Origin: Candidatus Heimdallarchaeum aukensis
GTDB taxonomy: Archaea > Asgardarchaeota > Heimdallarchaeia > Heimdallarchaeales > Heimdallarchaeaceae
Assembly (NCBI GenBank): GCA_021513695.1
Contig: CP084166.1
Coordinates: forward strand, 768,001 to 832,000
Length of the DNA stretch: 64,000 nt
Reading direction: 5' to 3'
Each line of letters starts with the position of its first letter. The stretch's first letter is position 1. Shown piece by piece: positions 1,239 to 56,090 of the stretch. The notes under the pieces were generated by a model, which was given only the letters and a program-made list of their open reading frames with translations, ran no database searches and was not told where the DNA came from. Position numbers and translations under genes: made by a program.

Positions 1239-2219
1239 GTGATGCGTTTGAAAATAATCATTACAACAGAAACTGGAGAATTGCTATTTTCATATGATTC
1301 CTTTACTGAAAATAGAAAATACGATAACGTACTGATTACTGGGTTGATTTCTGCAATTGTGGTTCTATCCAATGAAGTAGTTAGTTCTTTTCCAAGAGAA
1401 ATCGAATTTGAAGGAAAAATTCTTTATTTTTATAGAGAAAATGAATTTATAGCAGCTTTACTTGCAGATATAGAGTCACCTTTTAATGGTAGTATTCTTC
1501 CAGTTATTTTAGGAGAATTTAAGAAAGTACAAGAAAAACATGGCTTTCCTACACATAAAGCAATGAGATATGACAAAGAAATTGCTTATGCAGTAAAAGA
1601 TTGTTTAGCCATGTATTTAGCAAACATGCAGAAAAAGATGGTCAAATTATTAGATGACACAGATGTAGCGGATTACAATTCAATTATAAAAGTTAAAGCT
1701 GTAGCTAAAGATTTTTTGAAAGATGCAGCTCAATTTTTGCCTATTGATTTAATTTGCAGAATGATTCCTGATGGAATGGATAAAATTCTTTATAGTTTGA
1801 TTGTAGGTATTCCTATTGTAATTTCAGGAAACAAAGATATTGTTGAGCAGTTAATTAATAGTCTAAGAATGCTTTGTCCTACAAGAATTTTAAAAATAAA
1901 ATTTTGGTCAGACAAATATATTACAGGATATGACATTATAGGAACAAATGACATAAAAATAGTTAAACCTTCACTTTATCAATTGTACATTGATATTAAT
2001 AACGGAATAGTTTTAGGGGGTAAATCATCACAATATTTCAAAGATATTGAATGTCAAATATGTAATCTAAATACTGTAGAAGCTTTTAACTTCATAAGAA
2101 GCGAGTTGAATTGGATTTTCCAAGCATTCGAAGAATTAAAAATAGATGTTTTTTCTAAAAAATCACTACCACTTGAAAAACAGCTAATTTTGTTTGAACT
2201 TTTAAAAAGGTTACATTAA
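1239..2219 (+). CDS. Hypothetical protein with an N-terminal roadblock/LC7-like fold
   Basis: The N-terminal ~105 aa (IIITTETGELLFSY...NVLITGLISAIVVLSNEVV...EIEFEGKILYFYRE...FIAALLADIES...ILPVILGEFKKV) follow the beta-alpha-beta-beta-alpha pattern of roadblock/MglB domains. The C-terminal ~220 aa are unassigned and have no P-loop. Confidence 0.4.
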   Translation: MMRLKIIITTETGELLFSYDSFTENRKYDNVLITGLISAIVVLSNEVVSSFPREIEFEGKILYFYRENEFIAALLADIESPFNGSILPVILGEFKKVQEKHGFPTHKAMRYDKEIAYAVKDCLAMYLANMQKKMVKLLDDTDVADYNSIIKVKAVAKDFLKDAAQFLPIDLICRMIPDGMDKILYSLIVGIPIVISGNKDIVEQLINSLRMLCPTRILKIKFWSDKYITGYDIIGTNDIKIVKPSLYQLYIDINNGIVLGGKSSQYFKDIECQICNLNTVEAFNFIRSELNWIFQAFEELKIDVFSKKSLPLEKQLILFELLKRLH

Positions 2220-2278
2220 AATTTCAATTACGAAAAAACTATTAATAACCATTTTTAATTTAGATTAAACTTTAAATA

Positions 2279-2599
2279 GTGATGATTGTGGAGAAAAAAT
2301 CTAAAACTACTATAAAAAAATGGATTTCAAATTTAGATATCAGAAAATTAAGTTTTAGAGGAAAACTCATAATAATTATTTCATTTCTCCTTATCAGTTC
2401 TGCAATCATAATTAATTACATCAATAACTTTCAAGGAAAGATAGTAAAATATTCTGTTTGGATTCTTTTCGGTTGGTTTTTTCTCATAATAATTTTCTAT
2501 ATATCAATTAAACTACTCTCATTCACAGTTCTACGAAATAAGCAACAAAAGTTAAAAGAAGAAATAGAAAGTGATAAATTTGATCAGAGTAAAGATTAA
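2279..2599 (+). CDS. Small membrane protein with 2 predicted TM helices. It may be the first part of a frameshifted larger membrane-protein gene.
   Basis: Hydrophobic stretches LIIIISFLLISSAIIINYI and VWILFGWFFLIIIFYISIKLL. Its last 29 nt overlap the next ORF. Confidence 0.35.
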   Translation: MMIVEKKSKTTIKKWISNLDIRKLSFRGKLIIIISFLLISSAIIINYINNFQGKIVKYSVWILFGWFFLIIIFYISIKLLSFTVLRNKQQKLKEEIESDKFDQSKD

Positions 2600-2900
2600 A
2601 CCAAAAATTGCACACGTTGTTTTTGAAATTATAGCACTACTTGCAGCCATTGCAGGTTCTCTTTACATTGCTTCTATTGCTAATAAAATTGTATTATGGA
2701 TTTTTGAGACAATAATTGTCATTGTTCTGCTTTTCTTTGGTGGAAAGAGTATATACAATAAAATGAAACCATTTTATGTTTCAGCTCCCTTAAGAGAAGA
2801 CATGATAAAGGATCAAGAAGGTAGAAAGAGAATAATAACAGAACCTACAAAAAGAGGATTAACCAATGAAGACAAAGAAATTCAAAAAAATGACGAATAG
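2571..2900 (+). CDS. Small membrane protein with 2 TM helices and a GTG start. It could instead be a continuation of the preceding ORF after a frameshift.
   Basis: There is no ATG at its 5' end. TM stretches are VVFEIIALLAAIAGSLYIASI and IVLWIFETIIVIVLLFFGG. It sits in the +1 frame relative to 2279..2599. Confidence 0.3.
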   Translation: MINLIRVKIKPKIAHVVFEIIALLAAIAGSLYIASIANKIVLWIFETIIVIVLLFFGGKSIYNKMKPFYVSAPLREDMIKDQEGRKRIITEPTKRGLTNEDKEIQKNDE

Positions 2901-3096
2901 AGAATATTCAAGAGTCTATGCTACTGTTTTTCTTTTAATAATTAGTTTTCCTGTTGTTTTTATATCACAAAAATATATAGTTCCTTTTTTAGGAAATTAT
3001 GAAACAATTTATTGGTTTAGCGTTTTTTTATTACTTTCTTTTACTTTTCCCTTATTTAATTCAATTTTTTCAAAGATCATAGATAAAGAAAAATGA
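2866..3096 (+). CDS. Small membrane protein with 2 TM helices
   Basis: ATG start. TM stretches are VYATVFLLIISFPVVFI and IYWFSVFLLLSFTFPLF. It overlaps the previous ORF by 35 nt at an A7 homopolymer. Confidence 0.35.
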   Translation: MKTKKFKKMTNREYSRVYATVFLLIISFPVVFISQKYIVPFLGNYETIYWFSVFLLLSFTFPLFNSIFSKIIDKEK

Positions 3097-3181
3097 ATTA
3101 AACAATTCCCGACATTAATCGCAAAATAATGATTGGTGTAAGACACACATTTATATACCCTAATAAGGATATATTCAAAAA

Positions 3182-3400
3182 ATGACTGAAAGAATTATCC
3201 CTTTAATCTCACATTGTAAACAAGAAAAGATATCTATTTCACTACTTCTTTCTTCTTTAAGACTAATAGAAAAAGGCTTGATAAGAAAACAGTCTGAACT
3301 TAATGAATATCTCAAAAGAAGAGCAAAATATGAACCTCGAATCTTGAAAGATATTGAAAAAGTAGAAAGGTTGATTGTTGAAAGTAATATCATCAAATAA
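3182..3400 (+). CDS. Hypothetical small K/E-rich protein, tentative
   Basis: It runs in the same direction as the preceding small ORFs. It is mutually exclusive with the antisense ORF 3175..3396, and the choice between them is weak. Confidence 0.2.
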   Translation: MTERIIPLISHCKQEKISISLLLSSLRLIEKGLIRKQSELNEYLKRRAKYEPRILKDIEKVERLIVESNIIK

Positions 3401-3405
3401 TTAAA

Positions 3406-4782
3406 TCATTCTATAACTTTCTTTCTTTTAGCATATTGTATCAGCATTTTAATGGCATAAGCAGCTTCTCGTGGATTTAGAAATATGGGACTACTTTCTT
3501 TTTTGGCTATTCTCTTAGATTCATTTAACAAATTTCCACTCATGAATATGGGAATTATAGGTTTCTTTCTACCTGTTTCATTCCACGCTCTAATAACTCC
3601 TTCATAATGTTCTGATGTGGTCATTCCTAAAAATGTGGGTATTACTGCAATTGGAACAACAATATCAATGTTAGGATCTTCTAGCATTGCTTTAGTTACT
3701 TCATAGTACTCTTTTCCAGTTGCTCCTGCTATCATATCCAGAGGATTAACCTTTTTTACTAAAGGAATCAAAAAAGGATCAATTTTCTCTTTGAACTCTT
3801 CAGTAAATGTGGCTAGTTTTAGTCCGAAATCATCCGCAAAATCACTGAACATCACTGCACTTCCTCCACTATTTGTTAGTACTCCTATTTTTTCGCCTTT
3901 AGGAAGTGGAAGAAATGAAAAAGCTTTAATTGCAGCAATGTAATCTGTGATACTTTCACACATTATGGCTCCTGCTTGTTTAACTGCTGTTTTTAGAGAA
4001 CTATAGTCTGTAGCCATAGAACCTGTATGGCTTGAAGCTGCTCCCATTCCAGTAGCAGTTCTTCCTCCTTTAAGTACAACAACGGGTTTATCTTTTGCTA
4101 CTTCATGTAGTTCTTCATAAAATACTCTTCCATCAACAACATTTTCTAAATAAATAGTTACCACTTTTGTGTTTTCATCTTCCTTATAGAACCTTAAAAC
4201 ATCTGTTAAATTTATGTCTGCCATATTTCCTAAATTTGCAAATTTAGAGAATCCTAATCCTTGCCAAACCATTTCATACAAAACTATTGCCCCAACTGAA
4301 CCTGATTGTGTAATCATGCTTACATTTCCTTTAGGTGGGGTTTGAATGAATGATGCATTCATTCCTATATCTACATTTTGTATTCCTACACAGTTAGGTC
4401 CTATTAACCTTATTCCTGCATCTTTCAATTTTTGAGATAACTGTTCTTGCACTTTTCTTCCTTCTTCATTAATTTCTGCAAAACCAGCAGTTACGATAAT
4501 AATCCTCTTAACTTTTTTCTCTATACATTCATCGACAACATGAGGAACAATCTTTGCAGGAACAAGTAAAATCGCTAAATCGATCTCATCTGGTATTTCT
4601 AGTACAGACTTATATGCTTTTAATCCTCCAATAGTTTCAGCTTTAGGATGAACAGGACACAATTTTGCTTTCAGATCTTTATTCTCCATTAAGTTAGCTG
4701 TTACAGCATGTCCAAACTTTTTTTCATTATCTGTCGCACCAATAATTGCAATAGAATCTGGATAGAAAAACTTCCTAGTCAT
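3406..4782 (-). CDS. Acetyl-CoA synthetase (ADP-forming) alpha subunit / NDP-forming acyl-CoA synthetase alpha (CoA-binding plus ligase-CoA domains)
   Basis: SIAIIGATDN CoA-binding N-terminus, GPNCVGI, ITQSGSVG and the phosphohistidine loop GAASSHTGSMA. The 458-aa length is typical of the ACD alpha subunit. Confidence 0.85.
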   Translation of the reverse strand: MTRKFFYPDSIAIIGATDNEKKFGHAVTANLMENKDLKAKLCPVHPKAETIGGLKAYKSVLEIPDEIDLAILLVPAKIVPHVVDECIEKKVKRIIIVTAGFAEINEEGRKVQEQLSQKLKDAGIRLIGPNCVGIQNVDIGMNASFIQTPPKGNVSMITQSGSVGAIVLYEMVWQGLGFSKFANLGNMADINLTDVLRFYKEDENTKVVTIYLENVVDGRVFYEELHEVAKDKPVVVLKGGRTATGMGAASSHTGSMATDYSSLKTAVKQAGAIMCESITDYIAAIKAFSFLPLPKGEKIGVLTNSGGSAVMFSDFADDFGLKLATFTEEFKEKIDPFLIPLVKKVNPLDMIAGATGKEYYEVTKAMLEDPNIDIVVPIAVIPTFLGMTTSEHYEGVIRAWNETGRKKPIIPIFMSGNLLNESKRIAKKESSPIFLNPREAAYAIKMLIQYAKRKKVIE

Positions 4783-4872
4783 TGTTCTTTTTAGAAATTG
4801 TGTCCTTTTAATTTTTTCTTATTGAACTAAAAAAAGAGTGAAAAAGAGTTTTCAAAATATTAAGACGATTTT

Positions 4873-5835
4873 TTATTGGTTTATATATCCGTGCTCAATT
4901 ACACACTTATCAGCGTCTAGATTTAAAACACTTATAGTATACTTTTTGATGTCATCATAACTTGTACTCGTCTTATCTATAAGATCAGCGAGAATATCAA
5001 GCAACCTCCTAGCTTCCTCGTGACTTTCATCAGTTTTTATTACCAATCCAAAGATATGAGATTGTGAAGAACGGAGAATGAATTTATAGTCTTTAGACAT
5101 GATAAACTGAATAATATTTTGTTCATTGAAAGTTTTTTTTGCAAAAGTTTGTATAGCTGAGAGAAAACCAGAATAGAGAGATATTTTATCTGAAAGTTTT
5201 TTCTTTGAGATACTTAAAATTGGCAATCCATCTCTATCTGCAAGTAAAAAAGACTCAGGAGTAACTTTTCTTTTTTGAATAAGTTTAGATAACTGATTTT
5301 GTAACCAATATAGGACAGAATCAAAATTTTCTCCAGTTTGCATGCTTATCTTAAAAAATTGAAAAGAGGCATTTGGAATCATAGCGAGATTATATATTTC
5401 CACGGTATTGATAATTTCTTCCAGGTTCATACTATTTTCTAAATCTGCTTTGTTACACAGAAATAGAATTAGAAACTCATCTCCGTTATCTTTTAACTTT
5501 ATTGACTTCCAAAATTCTTCTTTTGCTTCAAGTAATGATTCTCTATCTGAAGAATCAATGATAAAAATTATCCCATAAGCTAACTTAATGTAATTTTCCC
5601 AGATAGTCTTTCTAAAAACTTCTTGTCCCCCTAAATCAAAAATATTTACTTTTAGATCAAATAGTTCATATTGTTCTAACTGAACCCCCATAGTTGGTTT
5701 AGGACTAGTGAATTTTCCTGTGAGAATTCTGTTAACAAAAGTAGTTTTTCCAGCATTAGGTAAACCTAAAATTACTAAAGGAATTCCTTTTTTCTCAAAA
5801 GAAAGTAGTTTTTCAGATATTTTCTTCTTACTCAA
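4873..5835 (-). CDS. Arf/Sar/Rag-like small GTPase fused to a C-terminal roadblock-like domain
   Basis: G1 is GLPNAGKTT, G2 is PTMGV, G3 is DLGGQE (Arf-type), G4 is NKAD and G5 is SMQTG. The C-terminal ~140 aa (LLADRDGLPILSIS...FLSAIQTF...) resemble roadblock/LC7. Confidence 0.75.
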   Translation of the reverse strand: MSKKKISEKLLSFEKKGIPLVILGLPNAGKTTFVNRILTGKFTSPKPTMGVQLEQYELFDLKVNIFDLGGQEVFRKTIWENYIKLAYGIIFIIDSSDRESLLEAKEEFWKSIKLKDNGDEFLILFLCNKADLENSMNLEEIINTVEIYNLAMIPNASFQFFKISMQTGENFDSVLYWLQNQLSKLIQKRKVTPESFLLADRDGLPILSISKKKLSDKISLYSGFLSAIQTFAKKTFNEQNIIQFIMSKDYKFILRSSQSHIFGLVIKTDESHEEARRLLDILADLIDKTSTSYDDIKKYTISVLNLDADKCVIEHGYINQ

Positions 5836-6016
5836 TTTCGTTTAAACATGTTTAAAACAATTAATAAATATATTGATAATAATAAAGAAACAAGATAATT
5901 CTAATTAAAAGCGTACATTTATTCTATTAAATTTAGGAGTGCGCTCAAGGAACTTATGATTACAGCATATCTTTTTTATATTAAAAGAGTAATTTGAAGC
6001 TAGAAAGGTGAAATAA

Positions 6017-6961
6017 TTGACAAAAAGGATTTTAGTAACTGGTAGTTACGGACAAATTGGTCAAGTTCTTGTTCCTGCTCTAATGAATAGATATGGAAAA
6101 GAAAATATTATTGCAACAGGAAGAAAAAAGATTCCTTCAGTTTTTAAAGAAAAAGATGTTCATTATCATCGATTGGATGTTCGAGACTTAGCACAAATGC
6201 AGACTCTTCTCGTTGAACACGATATCGATATCTTAATTCATAATGCATCTGTTCTTTCTGCTACAGGAGAAAAAAATCCTCAACTTGCACATTCAATTAA
6301 TTTTGAAGGTTTTTATAATGCTTTAGAAGCCACAAGAATGCTAAATCTTGAACAACTTTTTGCTCCAAGTTCTATTGCAGCTTTTGGCCCATCTACTCCA
6401 AGAGAGAATACTCCTAATGATGTAATCACTCGACCTACTACAATATATGGAATAAGTAAAGTCTATATAGAGCTAATGGGAGAGTACTATCATCAGAAAT
6501 ATGGTTTGGACTTTAGATCTCTTCGTTATCCTGGAGTAATTTCTCCTGAAGAACCTGGCGGTGGAACAACAGATTGGGCAATATGGATTTTCTGGGAAGC
6601 TTTACGTAATAAAAAATACACTTGCTTCTTAAAAGAAGATACTTCTCTTCCAATGATGTATATGCCAGACTGTATTAAATCCACTATTGATTTAATTGAA
6701 GCAGATAATTCAAAGCTTGAACATCGTTCATTTAATGTAACCGCATTTAGTTTAGCTCCCAAAGATTTAGTAGAACCTATAAGAGAGGTTATTCCTGAAT
6801 TTAAAATAGCATATGAACCTGATTTTAGACAACAAATTGCTGAATCTTGGCCAGCTTCAATTGATGACAGTGTAGCTAGAAAAGAATGGGGTTGGAAACC
6901 TGATTACGATATTCCTGCTATGACAAAAGATATGCTAGAAAAAATATCCAAAATGATTTAA
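6017..6961 (+). CDS. NAD-dependent epimerase/dehydratase-family enzyme of the extended SDR class, probably L-threonine 3-dehydrogenase-like
   Basis: ILVTGSYGQIGQVL is a Rossmann GxxGxxG motif. YGISKVYIELMGEYY carries the catalytic YxxxK. The gene uses a TTG start with an AGGTGA Shine-Dalgarno 8 nt upstream. Confidence 0.7.
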   Translation: MTKRILVTGSYGQIGQVLVPALMNRYGKENIIATGRKKIPSVFKEKDVHYHRLDVRDLAQMQTLLVEHDIDILIHNASVLSATGEKNPQLAHSINFEGFYNALEATRMLNLEQLFAPSSIAAFGPSTPRENTPNDVITRPTTIYGISKVYIELMGEYYHQKYGLDFRSLRYPGVISPEEPGGGTTDWAIWIFWEALRNKKYTCFLKEDTSLPMMYMPDCIKSTIDLIEADNSKLEHRSFNVTAFSLAPKDLVEPIREVIPEFKIAYEPDFRQQIAESWPASIDDSVARKEWGWKPDYDIPAMTKDMLEKISKMI

Positions 6962-7104
6962 TTTATTTTGCATTAGTATGTAAAATTCTTTAGCAAATTT
7001 TTTTTCCATTTTTTATAGTTTAGGACTTTTTAAGCACAATGATTATTTGAAAAATATCATCTTTAAGAAAAATTAAAAAGGAAAAAACAAATGAACGGAA
7101 TGGA

Positions 7105-8541
7105 ATGAAAATAATGAAAGAAGGATTAACTTTTGATGATGTTCTTCTTATTCCTAAACGTTCCTCTGTCCGCTCTAGACGAGAAATAGATACTTCTACA
7201 CAGTTATCTAAGAATATTAGATTGAACATCCCTATAGTAAGTGCAAATATGGACACAGTTACAGAAAGTGCGATGGCTATTGTTATGGCACAACAAGGAG
7301 GAATAGGAATCATACATCGATTTATGCCTATAGTTGAACAAGTAAACGAAGTTAACAAAGTTAAACGTGCTGAAATGATAAGAATTGACAATCCTTATTG
7401 CTTAAAGCCTGAAACCTCGTTACAAGAAGCTAAAGAGTTTATGAAAGAAAAAGGAATATCAGGATTGCTCATTACAGATAACAATAACATTTTACAAGGA
7501 ATTCTTACTTCACGAGACATTAAATTTACAGAAGATGAAAATGTTTTAGTAAAAGAACTAATGTCAACAGATCTTATTACAGCAAGACCAGATATTTCGA
7601 TTGAGGAAGCAAAAAATATTCTAAAGAAGAATAGAATTGAAAAACTTCCCCTTGTTGATGAAAAAGGAGTAGTAAGAGGACTAATAACAGCAACAGATAT
7701 TATCAAGGCTAAAATATTACCTAAAGCAAGTAAGGATTCTAAAGGAAGGTTAAGAGTAGGTGCAGCAATAGGAGTAGTAGGAGATTATTTAGAAAGAGCA
7801 GAAGCCCTTTATAATGCTGGAGCTGATGTTCTAGTTTTAGATATCGCACATGGTCATTCAGATTTGGCAATAAATGCAATAAAAGAAATTAGAAAGAATC
7901 TTGGAGATGTAGAATTAATTTCGGGAAATGTTGCTACAGCAGAAGGAGCAAAAGATCTAATTGAAGCGGGTAGTGATGGAATTAAAACTGGAGTGGGGCC
8001 AGGTTCAATATGTATAACAAGAGTAGTGGCAGGAGCTGGTGTTCCACAACTTACAGCTATAATTGAAACATCAAAAGTAGCTAAAGACTATGGGGTGCCT
8101 GTAATCGCAGACGGAGGCATTCGTACTTCAGGAGATATTACTAAGGCTATAGCTGCAGGAGCACAAACAGTTATGATTGGAAGCTTACTAGCAGGAACTG
8201 AAGAAAGTCCTGGAGCAGCTATTCTAAGACATGGGAGAAGATATAAAGTTGTCAGAGGAATGGCTTCTCTTGGAGCTACATTAGGTCGAGAAGCAAAAGA
8301 AAAGAAAGGAAGTTTTGACGAATTTGATTTAGGTTCTGTGGTTCCAGAAGGAGTAGAAGCAATGGTGCCATATCGTGGTTCAGCAGTAGACGTATTGAAT
8401 CAGCTAGTAGGTGGATTTAGAAGTGGTGTAAGTTACTGCGGAGCTTCTTCGATTCCAGAAATGCAAGAAAAAGCAGAATTTATAAAAATAACCTCTGCAG
8501 GAAGAAAAGAATCAACATCACATGATGTAGAATTAATTTAA
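7105..8541 (+). CDS. guaB: Inosine-5'-monophosphate dehydrogenase
   Basis: The N-terminus [13 protein letters not shown], a CBS pair in the middle, and the catalytic loop [15 protein letters not shown] followed by GVPQLTAI...ADGGIR. The protein is 478 aa. The true start may be the second ATG, at 7114. Confidence 0.9.
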
Positions 8542-8586
8542 ATTGAAACTTTTTAAACACAATTTTAATTTTTTTTTAAAAAAATA

Positions 8587-8594
8587 TTTATAAA
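8587..8594 (+). promoter_or_regulatory. Putative archaeal TATA box (TTTATAAA) for the gene starting at 8621
   Basis: TTTATAAA is centred about 31 nt upstream of the ATG at 8621, which implies a leaderless or very short-leader transcript. It is flanked by an A/T palindrome, tttttttaaaaaaa. Confidence 0.3.
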
Positions 8595-8620
8595 CTTATA
8601 AACTTGGTTTATCCTAACAA

Positions 8621-10060
8621 ATGAATAGTGTTGATGGGGTTAGCCTGGTAATCGGGGACATATGTAAAAGAGACATTCGTTTTTTATTAGAAAAAAGAAA
8701 AAATTCTCTCCTACCTTATAGTCCATATTGCTTTTCAACAGTTTTTGGAGACATTACCGAAGAAGATAAACAATTATTTGAAAAAATAAAGAAAAAATAT
8801 GGGTTAATTACAACAGATATGTTTTATCGATTAGTGGGTTTAAGGATTTTAATTCAAAAGGAACTTATAATTATTCAACAAAGAAAGGAGGAAGAAACAA
8901 ATAATCCTCAAGAACAGATTCATAACATAGATCAATTTCAGTTGTGCCTATTCCTTCATTCAATGCATGAGTGCGGAGAATATTCTTTTTTTTCGGAAAA
9001 GATAAATAAACAGATAGTTATAAAGCAATATTTCTTTACTCCTCCCTATTCTGTAAAGATTAAAAAAAGAAATACAAAGTGGTTTAATTTTAATAAACTA
9101 TCCAAAAAAATAAACAACTTAAATATTCATTTAGACCCTCTTTCAAACCTTTTTTTTGAAATTTTTTATGATAGAAAATTTAATTTATTTGAAACAATTA
9201 AACGCTTAGAGTATAAAGAAGAAAAATCCAAAATCAATCCAAGTTTATGGCTTTTCAAACATAAATCACCTATTGTTCCTCCAGATAATTATATCAACAC
9301 ATTTGTTGTGGGAAATAAATACAAATATATTATTGATCCTGGAGCTGACAGTAAAAAAGAAATGATAAAATCAGGTTTTCTAGACTTTATAGAAAATCAT
9401 GTAACAGAAATTGATGGAATACTACTGTCACATGGTCATTTAGATCATTGTAATCAGATCGATTTCCTTAGGAAAAATTATGGTATCCCTGTTTTTAGTT
9501 CCAAAAATACAGCAAAAAAATTATTAGAAAAAACCAATTTTAAGATTAACGGTTTCTTAAATGATAACCAGCTCATAGACCTCGGGAACTCACCTTTTTC
9601 TAAAAAAAGATGGTATCTAAAAGTAATAAACCTTAATGGTCATACAAAGGGCTCTATTGGTTTCCTTGATATGAATCGTGGTTTCTTATTTAGCGGGGAT
9701 TTTATTTTGGAAGGAAGACAAACCATTGTAGATCCAAATTATGGTTCTTTGGTAGATTTAAGGAGAAATATTAAAAAATTGCTTAAACTAAATATCACTT
9801 TTATTCATCCAGGACATGGAGATATCTTTAAGTTTGACAGAAAATGGGTAAAAACAAATCTTACATTACTAGACAATCAAGAAGAAAAAATAAAAGAGAG
9901 TATAGAATCAGGATATTCTTCAATTGAAGAGATAACTAAACATGTTTTCTCTGATAGTACAGCCCACATAGGAAGATTTCTCACTTTAGCCCACATTCAA
10001 CATCTCGAAGAAAAAAATGTTGTTATAAAAAGAGGAGAGGACTATTTCTTGAATAAGTAA
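8621..10060 (+). CDS. MBL-fold metallo-hydrolase with an N-terminal domain of unknown function
   Basis: HGHLDHC is the HxHxDH motif. NGHTKGSIGF and HPGHGD further downstream fit the MBL superfamily. Confidence 0.6.
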   Translation: MNSVDGVSLVIGDICKRDIRFLLEKRKNSLLPYSPYCFSTVFGDITEEDKQLFEKIKKKYGLITTDMFYRLVGLRILIQKELIIIQQRKEEETNNPQEQIHNIDQFQLCLFLHSMHECGEYSFFSEKINKQIVIKQYFFTPPYSVKIKKRNTKWFNFNKLSKKINNLNIHLDPLSNLFFEIFYDRKFNLFETIKRLEYKEEKSKINPSLWLFKHKSPIVPPDNYINTFVVGNKYKYIIDPGADSKKEMIKSGFLDFIENHVTEIDGILLSHGHLDHCNQIDFLRKNYGIPVFSSKNTAKKLLEKTNFKINGFLNDNQLIDLGNSPFSKKRWYLKVINLNGHTKGSIGFLDMNRGFLFSGDFILEGRQTIVDPNYGSLVDLRRNIKKLLKLNITFIHPGHGDIFKFDRKWVKTNLTLLDNQEEKIKESIESGYSSIEEITKHVFSDSTAHIGRFLTLAHIQHLEEKNVVIKRGEDYFLNK

Positions 10061-10118
10061 AAGTCTTATTGTTCACATAAGGATTAAGTTTTTAAAATAT
10101 TTTTTTTAACGTAAAAAC

Positions 10119-11561
10119 ATGACAGTTAATGTTCTTGCAGATAAATGTGAAATATCTAAATGTAATAGTGAGTGTGTTGAAGTTTGCCCTCAAAATAAAA
10201 AAGGCATTTCAACCATTATAATAGAACAAAATAAAGCTCAGATATTTCACAAAAACTGTATTGAGTGTCTCTTATGTATCCAATATTGCCCTCTTAAAGC
10301 TATAGAAATTCAGCAATCTAAAGAAAAAAAAGCAAGAAGAAAAGATAAAAAAAAGAGAAAAGCAAAGTTAAATCAGTCTCCTTTTGAAATTGATGAAAAA
10401 ATATATCAGCCAATGAGTGAAAAAAAGACTATTTTTGCTAGAGTTATGTGGGATGAATCATTTAAAGGTTACCAGAGAGGAATTTTTGAAGGAGCAAAAA
10501 ACAAAATTCCTCTAAACTTGGATGGATATTCTGAAATTGAACATGCTGCTATTTCTGGTGCATGGTCTATTGATAGTGTTATTGGTATGTTCGAAAGAGA
10601 ACAGTTAACAAAAATGAACCAAGAATCAAGAGCAGCAGAGAACAGTAGAGAAAAAAAGGAAAAGAAAGATCTACTTAATCCTGAGCAAAGTGTAAAAAGC
10701 AAAAGATTAATGGAAAATAATCCTTCTGAACTAACTACATGGGTAAAAAAAATAGCTATGGTTTATGGAGCAGATCTTGTAGGAATTACACCTATAAACC
10801 TTAAGTGGATATACACTGAAGATAGAAAAGGTGACCCTCTGAACCTTCCTGAAGGATTAACACATGCAATAGTTTTTGCAGTAGAAATGGATATTGATGC
10901 AATTAATACTGCTCCAAAATATCCGAGTGGAATAGCAACAGGTTTAGGCTATTCTAAAATGGCTTTTATTCGTACTCTACTAACATTTTTTATCAGAAGG
11001 ATGGGATATAAAGCTATTCCAGCAGGAAATAATATCGCCCTTTCAGTTCCTCTAGCTGTAGAAGCTGGACTTGGTGGATATGGAAGACATGGATTACTTA
11101 TTACAAAAAAATATGGGCCTAGAGTGAGAATTGCAAAAGTTTTAACTGATATGCCCTTGGTTCCAGATAAACCTGATTATAAATTTATAAAAGCAGTCGA
11201 GCGTTTTTGTAAAACTTGTAAAACCTGTGCTAAAAAATGTCCAAGCAATTCTATTCCTTTTGATAAAGAACCTAGCTTCAAAATACAAAGTGAAGTGAGC
11301 AACAATCCAGGAATAAAGAAATGGTATGTAAATGTTGAAACTTGTTATATGTTTTGGACTGAAAACGGATGTGACTGTAGTAGATGCATTTCTGATTGTG
11401 AATATAATCATGTCTATACACTTCCTCACAAAATTGTTAATTGGATTGTTATGAATCTCCCCTTCCTTAACCCTATTTGGCCTTTTATTGGAAAAATCCT
11501 AGGATATGGAGGAAATAAATCAGCAAAAAAGTATTGGAAGAAAATAAAAGTTTATCCCTAG
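10119..11561 (+). CDS. Iron-sulfur protein with an N-terminal 2x[4Fe-4S] ferredoxin domain and a C-terminal reductive-dehalogenase / epoxyqueuosine-reductase-like domain
   Basis: The N-terminus has CEISKCNSECVEVCP and CIECLLCIQYCP. The C-terminus has CKTCKTCAKKCP plus CYMFWTENGCDCSRCISDCEY, which matches RdhA/QueG-type cluster spacing. K/E-rich low-complexity inserts sit between the domains. Confidence 0.5.
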   Translation: MTVNVLADKCEISKCNSECVEVCPQNKKGISTIIIEQNKAQIFHKNCIECLLCIQYCPLKAIEIQQSKEKKARRKDKKKRKAKLNQSPFEIDEKIYQPMSEKKTIFARVMWDESFKGYQRGIFEGAKNKIPLNLDGYSEIEHAAISGAWSIDSVIGMFEREQLTKMNQESRAAENSREKKEKKDLLNPEQSVKSKRLMENNPSELTTWVKKIAMVYGADLVGITPINLKWIYTEDRKGDPLNLPEGLTHAIVFAVEMDIDAINTAPKYPSGIATGLGYSKMAFIRTLLTFFIRRMGYKAIPAGNNIALSVPLAVEAGLGGYGRHGLLITKKYGPRVRIAKVLTDMPLVPDKPDYKFIKAVERFCKTCKTCAKKCPSNSIPFDKEPSFKIQSEVSNNPGIKKWYVNVETCYMFWTENGCDCSRCISDCEYNHVYTLPHKIVNWIVMNLPFLNPIWPFIGKILGYGGNKSAKKYWKKIKVYP

Positions 11562-38242: not shown

Positions 38243-38788
38243 GTGATACAGAGGAACTACAAAATAATACTTATTGGAAATGCTCTTGTTGGAAAAACTG
38301 CTATTGTAACACGTTTTGCTAAAGATTACTTTGAACAGAACTATTTGAGAACGCTAGGAATCAATTACTACATAAAGACACAAGTAATTACTAATGTAGA
38401 AGTAAAGATGATTATTACAGACACCGCAGGACAAGAAGCGTTTCAACGCCTAAGAAGTTCGTATTACAAGGGGGCAAGAGGAGCAATAATTGTTTATGCA
38501 ATAAATGACAGACATAGCTTTGGACAAGTTGATTATTGGAAGAATGAAATGTTCAAGACTTTAAAAGAAATCCCAATAATAATTGTCGGAAATAAAATTG
38601 ACTTAATCGATCAAAGAAGAATATCAACAAGTGAAGGACGCTTGTTAGCGAAAAAATTGGGTTGTTTATTTATTGAATCATCTGCTAAAACAGGAGAAAA
38701 TATTGATAAAATCTTTGAAATGATAGTTAAAGATATACTAAGAAAAGATAATTTAATAACAGAAGAAAAAGAAGAAAGTTCTACTTAA
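38243..38788 (+). CDS. Ras/Rab-like small GTPase
   Basis: G1 is GNALVGKT, switch I is RTLGIN, G3 is DTAGQE, G4 is GNKIDL and G5 is SAKTG. There is no C-terminal prenylation Cys. Confidence 0.8.
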   Translation: MIQRNYKIILIGNALVGKTAIVTRFAKDYFEQNYLRTLGINYYIKTQVITNVEVKMIITDTAGQEAFQRLRSSYYKGARGAIIVYAINDRHSFGQVDYWKNEMFKTLKEIPIIIVGNKIDLIDQRRISTSEGRLLAKKLGCLFIESSAKTGENIDKIFEMIVKDILRKDNLITEEKEESST

Positions 38789-55556: not shown

Positions 55557-56090
55557 ATGACAAAAACAATTAATACTTGCAAGATTGTTATTGTTGGCGA
55601 TAAAGGAGTGGGAAAAACATCACTAGTCCATAGCCTAGTCGGGAAAGAAAAAATAATTAAAATTACTCCTGGGGTGAAAATAGAAAATATGCTAGTAGAT
55701 TTAGGTGAAAATATTACTGCAGACGTTGTTTTCTGGAATTTAGAAGAAGATCCTCATTTTAGATTTTTTCAACAAGATGTTCTAGAATGTCCAAATATTG
55801 TCTTATTAGTATATGATCTAAACAACTTTAGTTCTTTATTACACTTAGAAAATGAATGTCTTCCAATGTTTGAGAAAAATGACACATTAAAAAAATCTAC
55901 ACCGATTCTGATTGGTAATAAAATTGATCTAGGACAATCAATAAATGATAAGGTAATAGAAGATTTTATACAAAAATATGGAATTCCATCTTTCAAAATT
56001 TCTGTTAAAGAAAAAATCAACATTGAAGAAGTAGCTAACGCAACAATTGAGATAGTAAAGTCTTATTATAAGAAGAAAAAACAAAGTTAA
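55557..56090 (+). CDS. Small GTPase (Ras superfamily) with a non-canonical switch II
   Basis: G1 is GDKGVGKTS, switch I has a Thr in KITPGV, G4 is GNKIDL and G5 is SVK. The G3 position reads FWNLEEDP instead of WDTAGQE, so the DxxG Gly and the catalytic Gln are absent. Confidence 0.7.
   Translation: MTKTINTCKIVIVGDKGVGKTSLVHSLVGKEKIIKITPGVKIENMLVDLGENITADVVFWNLEEDPHFRFFQQDVLECPNIVLLVYDLNNFSSLLHLENECLPMFEKNDTLKKSTPILIGNKIDLGQSINDKVIEDFIQKYGIPSFKISVKEKINIEEVANATIEIVKSYYKKKKQS

Follow-up and report, generated by a model that had tools for sequence, protein, structure and literature searches.

Introduction

GTPase-longin fusions are already known in Asgard archaea. Multiple Asgard GTPases with a fused longin domain have been filed under Rag (Liu et al. 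preprint 10.1101/2020.10.19.343400), and in MK-D1 a roadblock or longin domain is present on 26 of the 74 small GTPases, many of them being annotated as Arf-like (Tran et al. 2024, PMC10933270). Together with LokiRagO (8YL2), these published proteins join a Ras-superfamily G domain to a longin or roadblock domain and have been classed as Rag-like, those with a roadblock having an insert in switch II. Extra domains such as longin have also been described on some Asgard Arfs (Zhu et al. 2025, PMC11914678), and a distinction has been drawn between Asgard 'ArfL' proteins and the true Arf relatives, 'ArfR' (Vargova et al., bioRxiv 10.1101/2024.02.28.582541). The characterised ArfRs, HodArfR1 and GerdArfR1 (8OUK, 8OUL, 8OUM and 8OUN), comprise a single domain (~180 aa) and possess a distinct membrane-binding amphipathic helix at the N-terminus.

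Related arrangements occur in eukaryotes. In Rag/Gtr GTPases, too, the G domain is followed by an alpha/beta platform of the longin/roadblock superfamily, while SR-beta, which has an N-terminal transmembrane anchor, and the SRX domain of SR-alpha (1NRJ, 2FH5) are separate polypeptides. The combination of a longin with a DENN domain is found in folliculin-FNIP, C9orf72-SMCR8 and the DENND proteins, and proteins with exactly the domain organisation of folliculin have been reported from some Heimdallarchaea (Liu et al. preprint 10.1101/2020.10.19.343400).

Here, we analyse a gene of Ca. Heimdallarchaeum aukensis whose product, UJG41462.1, adds a member to the Asgard GTPase-longin fusions. Its architecture is of the same kind as that of the published proteins, from which it differs by an Arf-length switch II, by much higher scores against Arf/ArfR than against RagGtr references, and by its predicted longin domain. 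Neither the supplements of the ArfR preprint nor those of the AArf paper returned the accession on searching, and a Heimdallarchaeota ArfR-longin subfamily is not singled out in the literature examined.

Results

A conserved two-domain GTPase gene

The gene lies in a 64-kb stretch of DNA, referred to below as the window, in which an Rfam scan gave no match. It has the following features.

4873..5835, minus strand: GTPase gene, 320 aa, TTG start, stop codon at 4873-4875
5272..5835, minus strand: G domain, residues 1-188; first helix (3-10) short and basic, last helix (171-188) extended
5743..5766, minus strand: G1/P-loop GLPNAGKT, residues 24-31; all 52 homologues have G29 and K30
5623..5637, minus strand: G3 DLGGQ, residues 67-71, followed by switch II R75-x3-W79-x2-Y82
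5443..5454, minus strand: G4 NKAD, residues 128-131; N, K and D invariant among homologues
4876..5259, minus strand: predicted longin domain, residues ~193-320, from AF2 DSSP, the Fuz_longin_1 match and conservation

The product is identical to UJG41462.1 (UniRef A0A9Y1BME3), annotated as a 'GTP-binding protein' of Ca. Heimdallarchaeum aukensis, and thus has the Asgard origin that had been surmised from the density of such genes. The entry sits on a 3.08-Mb contig, and the genome is closed. Full-length homologues of ~315 aa, with 46-92% identity, fall into ~60 database clusters, and wherever their source is named it is Heimdallarchaeota, Heimdallarchaeaceae or 'Asgard group'. Since the two-domain protein is conserved across these ~60 clusters, a chance ORF or a fusion created by assembly can be dismissed. 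We consider it probable that UJG41462.1 is an Asgard ArfR-type GTPase of the Arf family, whose last helix is extended and leads into a longin domain at the C-terminus.

The original prediction, which described an Arf- and Rag-like GTPase fused to a roadblock domain, was accurate as an observation and largely correct as an interpretation, and neither outcome that it had named as refuting, a C-terminal half without a roadblock or longin fold or a GTPase grouping with MglA or other non-Arf families, was observed. All motifs that it quoted are present (GLPNAGKTT at residues 24-32, DLGGQE at 67-72, NKAD at 128-131, SMQTG at 164-168 and LLADRDGLPILS at 197-208), as are the two further small GTPases that it placed in the window, both of the Ras family (38243..38788, 179 bits; 55557..56090, 56.6 bits). 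With an Arf-family switch and a longin domain, the protein is also eukaryote-like in the sense proposed. The G domain is N-terminal as described, its boundary lying nearer residue 188 than the suggested ~175.

Affiliation of the G domain

Pfam Arf (PF00025) matches residues 8-181 of UJG41462.1 with E=1e-35 and 123.2 bits against a cut-off of 22.3, over profile positions 6-173 of 174, and the scores of Ras, Roc and SRPRB are far lower. A sequence search of the PDB places GerdArfR1 (8OUN, 100.7 bits), HodArfR1 (8OUL, 93.9) and eukaryotic Arf1 (91.5) at the top, and its best 60 matches are all ArfR, Arf or Arl. The same picture is obtained from structure: an AlphaFold2 (AF2) model of the full-length protein, built with 52 homologues (pLDDT 83, pTM 0.84), has HodArfR1 (8OUK, 9e-14) as its best Foldseek match, followed by Arf1, Arl8 and Arl3. 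These results bear out the earlier placement in the Arf/Sar/Arl branch.

Ten members of the ArfR-longin family were also compared by BLAST with reference sequences. For Arf1, both here and in the comparison of switch II, we used what we take to be the human Arf1 sequence, and the GerdArfR1 reference was taken from the alignment of the PDB search. The ArfL, RagGtr and MglA references come from Table S3 of Vargova et al. (bioRxiv 10.1101/2024.02.28.582541). Scores were 80-105 bits against ArfR/Arf1, 25-60 against ArfL, 30-48 against RagGtr and 20-38 against MglA, the ArfR references having 29-37% identity to the family. On these values, an ArfL-type and an MglA/MglB-type G domain were both dropped. 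The ArfL references, moreover, often differ from UJG41462.1 both in the place of the longin domain, which is N-terminal, and in G3, which reads DxAGQ.

A double-glycine G3 (DxGG[QH]) and a switch II of the form RxxWxxY are hallmarks of the Arf family. UJG41462.1 has an Arf-like G2 (PTMG), the double-glycine G3 (DLGG), NKxD at G4, and a switch II whose length is Arf-like when set against Arf1. Little or no variation is seen across the 52 homologues in GLPNAGKT, T48, DLGGQ, R75/W79/Y82 and NKAD, with residue 71, the catalytic position at the end of G3, being His in 49 of them (a Sar1-like DLGGH) and Gln only in UJG41462.1 and its two closest relatives. G5, which reads SMK or SMQ in the family, is not Arf-like. 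From the similarity scores and the motifs we conclude that the G domain is of ArfR/Arf type. The characterised ArfRs, which are closest both by sequence and by Foldseek, share with it the double-glycine G3, RxxWxxY and a PTxG G2, and like it have no glycine for myristoylation; they differ in that UJG41462.1 has a weak N-terminal helix and an extra longin domain of 130 residues.

In the model, this N-terminal helix (residues 3-10) is basic, poorly hydrophobic and weakly amphipathic. Its hydrophobic moment over 11 residues is 0.50, with a family median of 0.34, as compared to 0.63-0.70 in Arf1, the mean hydrophobicity is about 0.1-0.3 versus 0.63-0.84 in Arf1, and Gly2 occurs in 4 of 51 members. 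The segment being short, basic, weakly amphipathic and mostly without Gly2, membrane insertion in the style of Arf is unsupported, and recruitment by a partner appears the more likely route.

The C-terminal domain

The remainder of the protein had been described as a roadblock/LC7 domain. In the full-length protein, the Pfam matches in this region are weak (Fuz_longin_1 1.9e-5, 25.3 bits; MAPKK1_Int 0.0036; Robl_LC7 0.039). When the domain is searched in isolation, Fuz_longin_1, a profile for the first longin domain of FUZ/MON1/HPS1, rises to 27.2 bits (E=5e-6) and passes its cut-off of 26.1, while Robl_LC7 (17.5 bits against a cut-off of 23) and MAPKK1_Int (17.9 bits) remain below threshold. 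Fuz_longin_1 is likewise matched by 10 of 20 homologues, with a best value of 3.3e-7, as compared to 3 of 20 for each of the other two profiles. The three profiles with which the original prediction proposed to search thus gave a match above cut-off for Arf, one below cut-off for Robl_LC7, and none for Gtr1_RagA.

The AF2 model assigns to the domain, by DSSP, strands at 195-200 and 205-211, a helix at 218-234, strands at 242-246, 250-256 and 260-267, and helices at 272-288 and 293-303, with an extra short strand (311-315) following this core. The topology is therefore bb-a-bbb-a-a, with two C-terminal helices and no N-terminal one, the helix at 171-188 being the last of the G domain and thus not a separate roadblock helix. 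Longin domains are defined by precisely this order without an N-terminal helix, and roadblock domains by a-bb-a-bbb-a (Tran et al. 2024, PMC10933270). Because of this topology, and because Fuz_longin_1 lies above its cut-off and Robl_LC7 below, residues ~193-320 are best modelled as a longin domain within the longin/roadblock superfamily; the superfamily of the earlier assignment was right, and the roadblock identity gives way to longin. Profile searches of the PDB with the domain gave nothing significant, and neither a longin nor a Rag-like two-domain match came from the full-length fold searches, which aligned the G domain only (~150-190 residues).

Conservation within the domain is focused on a few positions. 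The 52 homologues show no variation at G203, E274, R276 or R277, and 50 of them have P205. G203 and P205 form a G-x-P loop (G203-x-P205) just before strand 2, while E274, R276 and R277 lie at the beginning of the C-terminal helix 272-288.

Distribution of the Arf-longin architecture

A search of 1.84 billion cluster representatives with a profile built from the longin domain retrieved 141 proteins. Among matches of 295-330 aa with a C-terminal longin, 7 of 10 sampled have an N-terminal Pfam Arf domain (up to 180 bits), and named Arf+longin proteins come from Helarchaeota, Heimdallarchaeota, Odinarchaeota and Hodarchaeota. A longin of the same type is found at the end of TPR proteins (about 450-730 aa) and of proteins with Ig-like domains, and many further matches are short, about 110-160 aa, and essentially constitute the domain alone.

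The GTDB species genomes, scanned for ArfR-longin, yielded 36 loci. MAGs of Promethearchaeota and Hermodarchaeota contain weaker relatives, with 31-36% identity and a match that reaches the longin strands. At least four MAGs have two ArfR-longin paralogues, and such pairs within one genome recall Rag/Gtr. The neighbourhoods of distant Arf-longin genes differ from one another, with unknown small proteins on a Helarchaeota contig, and dCache sensors and a response regulator on another.

A conserved gene block and a folliculin-like neighbour

The genes next to the GTPase in the window are listed below.

3406..4782, minus strand: CoA-binding/ADP-forming acyl-CoA synthetase alpha-type gene (ACD), 458 aa, directly downstream of the GTPase
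2279..3400, plus strand: four small ORFs of 106, 109, 76 and 72 aa, packed after the folliculin-like gene
1239..2219, plus strand: predicted longin+DENN folliculin-like gene, 326 aa as read, 323 aa in UJG41457.1

The GTPase and ACD genes are separated by 90 bp, in which runs of five and seven T and a TTAAAA box are found, and their adjacency is preserved in all ~25 orthologous loci. On the opposite strand, the gene at 1239..2219 and the four small ORFs probably form one operon. By eye, the 106-, 109- and 76-aa ORFs are hydrophobic with two transmembrane (TM) segments and the 72-aa ORF is helical; those of 106 and 72 aa are conserved across loci. The folliculin-like gene, which is convergent with the GTPase at a distance of about 2.7-3.2 kb, is found in every orthologous locus of sufficient length except one (L030). 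About 25 Heimdallarchaeota loci thus have the same order, with the GTPase and ACD genes facing the small ORFs and the folliculin-like gene, and in the same loci the upstream epimerase has been relocated, inverted or split off by insertions. Housekeeping neighbours are, however, ~70% identical across these loci, which implies fairly close relatives, so that the conservation of the block counts weakly.

The product of 1239..2219 had been taken for a standalone roadblock-like protein, a reading that its predicted structure contradicts. It belongs to a family without Pfam annotation whose named members are all Heimdallarchaeaceae or Heimdallarchaeota. Its AF2 model (pLDDT 77) starts with a longin, which is followed by an alpha/beta domain, and Foldseek matches the model to folliculin (FLCN; 6ULG_L, 1.4e-6, and 8DHB_J), to SMCR8/C9orf72 (6LT0, 7MGE) and to DENND1B (3TW8), the alignments with FLCN, SMCR8, C9orf72 and DENND1 covering 370-437 aligned columns. 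The C-terminal DENN domain of FLCN (3V42) is also matched, with a target-normalised TM-score of 0.58. Folliculin_C gives weak matches in 22 of 30 family members, all Pfam matches being sub-threshold, and a profile search of PDB sequences with the family gave nothing significant. As judged from the model, the protein is a small longin+DENN protein of the folliculin/SMCR8/DENND kind.

It shares this architecture with folliculin-FNIP, C9orf72-SMCR8 and the DENND proteins, and differs from the folliculin type in being far smaller (326 aa), in lacking a GP motif, and in being followed by small membrane-protein genes. FLCN has its arginine finger in the loop that joins strands 4 and 5. In the folliculin-like protein, no conserved Arg is seen at this place, where R66 varies within the family, a comparison that is tentative. 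The GP motif before strand 2, which has been tied to longin GAPs (PMC12290439), is absent, its loop being formed by G13-E14, both conserved.

Two comparisons bear on a functional link between the GTPase and this neighbour. A mirror-tree analysis of the two families gave a partial correlation of distance matrices of 0.09 and thus no extra signal, and profile searches for the folliculin-like family near the second paralogue and near distant Arf-longin genes found none. Aligned with hhalign, the two longin domains give a weak match that is in register (E=0.004, probability 8%). The link, which is based on gene order, is suggestive but weak.

Discussion

Alternative readings of the protein

The combination of a GTPase and a C-terminal platform led the original prediction to liken the protein to Rag/Gtr, and one could read it as an archaeal Rag/Gtr orthologue, that is, a nutrient-signalling GTPase that dimerises through a C-terminal roadblock in the manner of RagA/C and Gtr1/2. 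The likeness holds for the architecture, but the family of the G domain, G4 and the arrangement of the C-terminal helices all differ. Among the neighbouring genes, none resembling Ragulator components came to notice. Gtr1_RagA finds no match in UJG41462.1 at E<=1, no Rag chain appears among the top 60 PDB sequence matches or the top 50 Foldseek matches, and the Asgard RagGtr references score under half of ArfR/Arf1. G4 is NKxD, as opposed to HKxD in the two RagGtr references, and RxxWxxY in switch II is the Arf pattern. The topology of the C-terminal domain is that of a longin, without the N-terminal roadblock helix, and LokiRagO (8YL2), a chain of 293 residues, superposes on the G domain only, over 165 residues. 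A Rag/Gtr orthologue is, on this evidence, highly improbable. Reading the C-terminal domain as a true, MglB-like roadblock/LC7 would instead turn the protein into a fused polarity module of MglA/MglB type. This would accommodate the weak matches of the isolated domain to Robl_LC7 and MAPKK1_Int (LAMTOR3), which in the best homologues reach 4.4e-5 and 0.0011, and the in-register alignment (E~1) with the Robl_LC7 protein 7F8F of the PDB; with a longin fold predicted for the domain, and a G domain that scores as Arf and not as MglA, we regard it as very unlikely.

Given an ArfR-longin protein, the longin could also act in cis, either as an auto-inhibitor that covers the switches or as a built-in GAP or effector operating through R276/R277 or the G-x-P loop, so that the protein would resemble SR-beta bound to SRX, or a longin GAP, merged into one chain. 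The pTM of 0.84 for the two-domain model suggests a defined packing between the domains, and the invariance of G203, E274, R276 and R277, with P205 almost so, is consistent with such a role. The close relatives of UJG41462.1 have either Gln or His as catalytic residue, an alternation also seen between Arf and Sar1, two GTPases that use external arginine fingers. The G-x-P loop, in turn, precedes strand 2 at the site of the GP motif in longin GAPs (PMC12290439). On the other hand, the motif is G-[LF]-P and not GP, no conserved Arg is seen in the strand 4-5 loop, and a contact of the longin with the nucleotide pocket is hypothetical. We regard action in cis as unlikely, though as a serious alternative.

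A possible mechanism

For the preferred reading, an ArfR-type G domain followed by a longin domain, the intact G1-G5 suggest that the protein would be a switch controlled by GTP and GDP. By analogy, the longin domain may serve as a built-in platform for protein-protein contacts, either for self-association or for the docking of a regulator or effector that itself bears a longin or roadblock domain; parallels would be the pairing of Rags through their C-terminal domains, the binding of the longin-fold SRX by SR-beta, and the GAPs and GEFs formed by longin dimers. The likeness to SR-beta/SRX is one of analogy, the context of an SRP receptor being absent around UJG41462.1. Recruitment to membranes would then proceed through partners rather than through the protein's own N-terminal helix, and by its position the most obvious candidate could be the folliculin-like longin+DENN protein, whose predicted operon also encodes small membrane proteins. 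One could speculate further that the ArfR-longin protein, the folliculin-like protein and the small two-TM proteins make up a membrane-anchored GTPase-regulator module of the Heimdallarchaeaceae, in which the longins pair into a GAP or GEF site, a proposal to which we give a rather small chance.

Significance

Eukaryotes rely on Arf-family GTPases and longin/DENN regulators as core components of membrane traffic and of nutrient signalling, and the way in which these arose in Asgard archaea is being actively studied. Since both the architecture and the folliculin-like proteins of Heimdallarchaeia have already been published, ArfR-longin by itself leaves the current picture unchanged; it is a well-conserved added subfamily, whose full-length homologues appear confined to Heimdallarchaeota. 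The fixed block in a closed genome does provide a concrete pair of proteins for work on GAP/GEF activity and on the pairing of longins. Should the proposed module be real, it would answer which GTPases partner the folliculin-type longin proteins of Asgard archaea, and would foreshadow, in a prokaryote, the FLCN-Rag and C9orf72/SMCR8-Arf axes.

Gene neighbourhood of the GTPase

Immediately behind the Arf-family GTPase with its C-terminal longin domain (UJG41462.1) lies the following gene:

3406-4782 (-): CoA-binding, ADP-forming acyl-CoA synthetase alpha-type gene, on the same strand as the GTPase

In the window and in the orthologous loci L001-L033, this gene always follows the GTPase at a distance of 50-190 bp and in the same orientation, and the pairing is kept even at the locus L030, where the folliculin-like block has been replaced. 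Since the gap between the two genes in the window contains a T5 run, a T7 run and a TTAAAA box, they are probably transcribed separately, as judged from the sequence.

In the folliculin-like block, small reading frames that are tightly packed or overlapping follow the folliculin-like gene:

1239-3400 (+): folliculin-like longin+DENN gene and four small ORFs

Three of the small ORFs (106, 109 and 76 aa) are hydrophobic, apparently with two transmembrane segments, and that of 72 aa is helical. Two of the four, those of 106 and 72 aa, are conserved in about 20 loci. The block looks like an operon in which a DENN-type protein is coupled to small membrane proteins.

Near some orthologues, a further gene was found:

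L004/L027, 4980-6074 (-), and L024, 120-1226 (-): 364-aa GNAT protein matching PF01233

The match to PF01233, the N-terminal domain of eukaryotic N-myristoyltransferase, scores 40.6 bits against a cut-off of 25. In L004/L027 (GCA_013166775), the gene precedes the orthologous GTPase by about 2 kb, and in L024 an 81%-identical copy lies about 3.4 kb upstream; the window holds no homologue of this protein. A link to the GTPase is doubtful, because Gly2 is missing from most members of the GTPase family.

Catalytic position and related GTPases

Residue 71, the catalytic position in G3 (window 5623-5625), is Gln in Ca. Heimdallarchaeum (n=3) and His in the other 49 homologues, where G3 reads DLGGH, as in Sar1. 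Gln and His are swapped at this position among close relatives.

Another small GTPase of the window is a divergent one:

55557-56090 (+): divergent Ras-family small GTPase, 56.6 bits

Its P-loop is normal and NKID is present. A DxxGQ G3 motif is not evident in it, the sequence there being ...WNLEEDPHF..., and this may be either a pseudo-GTPase or an enzyme with an atypical catalytic mechanism.

Elsewhere, L023 (CAZJUB010000015.1, 2608-12510) holds a cluster of five relatives of the family, all of them small-GTPase genes and all inside 10 kb; the C-terminal longin domain is present in two (2581-3543 and 9977-10924).

Wider company of the Arf+longin genes

The longin subtype of the GTPase also terminates TPR-repeat proteins of about 450-730 aa (profile matches P0109, P0121, P0122, P0134, P0139 and others), and in other proteins it is combined with bacterial Ig-like domains. 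A distant Arf+longin gene also occurs in L042 (Logan ERR13917544 contig, 4540-9339). Two dCache sensor-domain proteins are encoded ahead of it, and a response-regulator gene overlaps its 3' end; this arrangement hints that such Arf+longin GTPases are coupled to two-component signalling.
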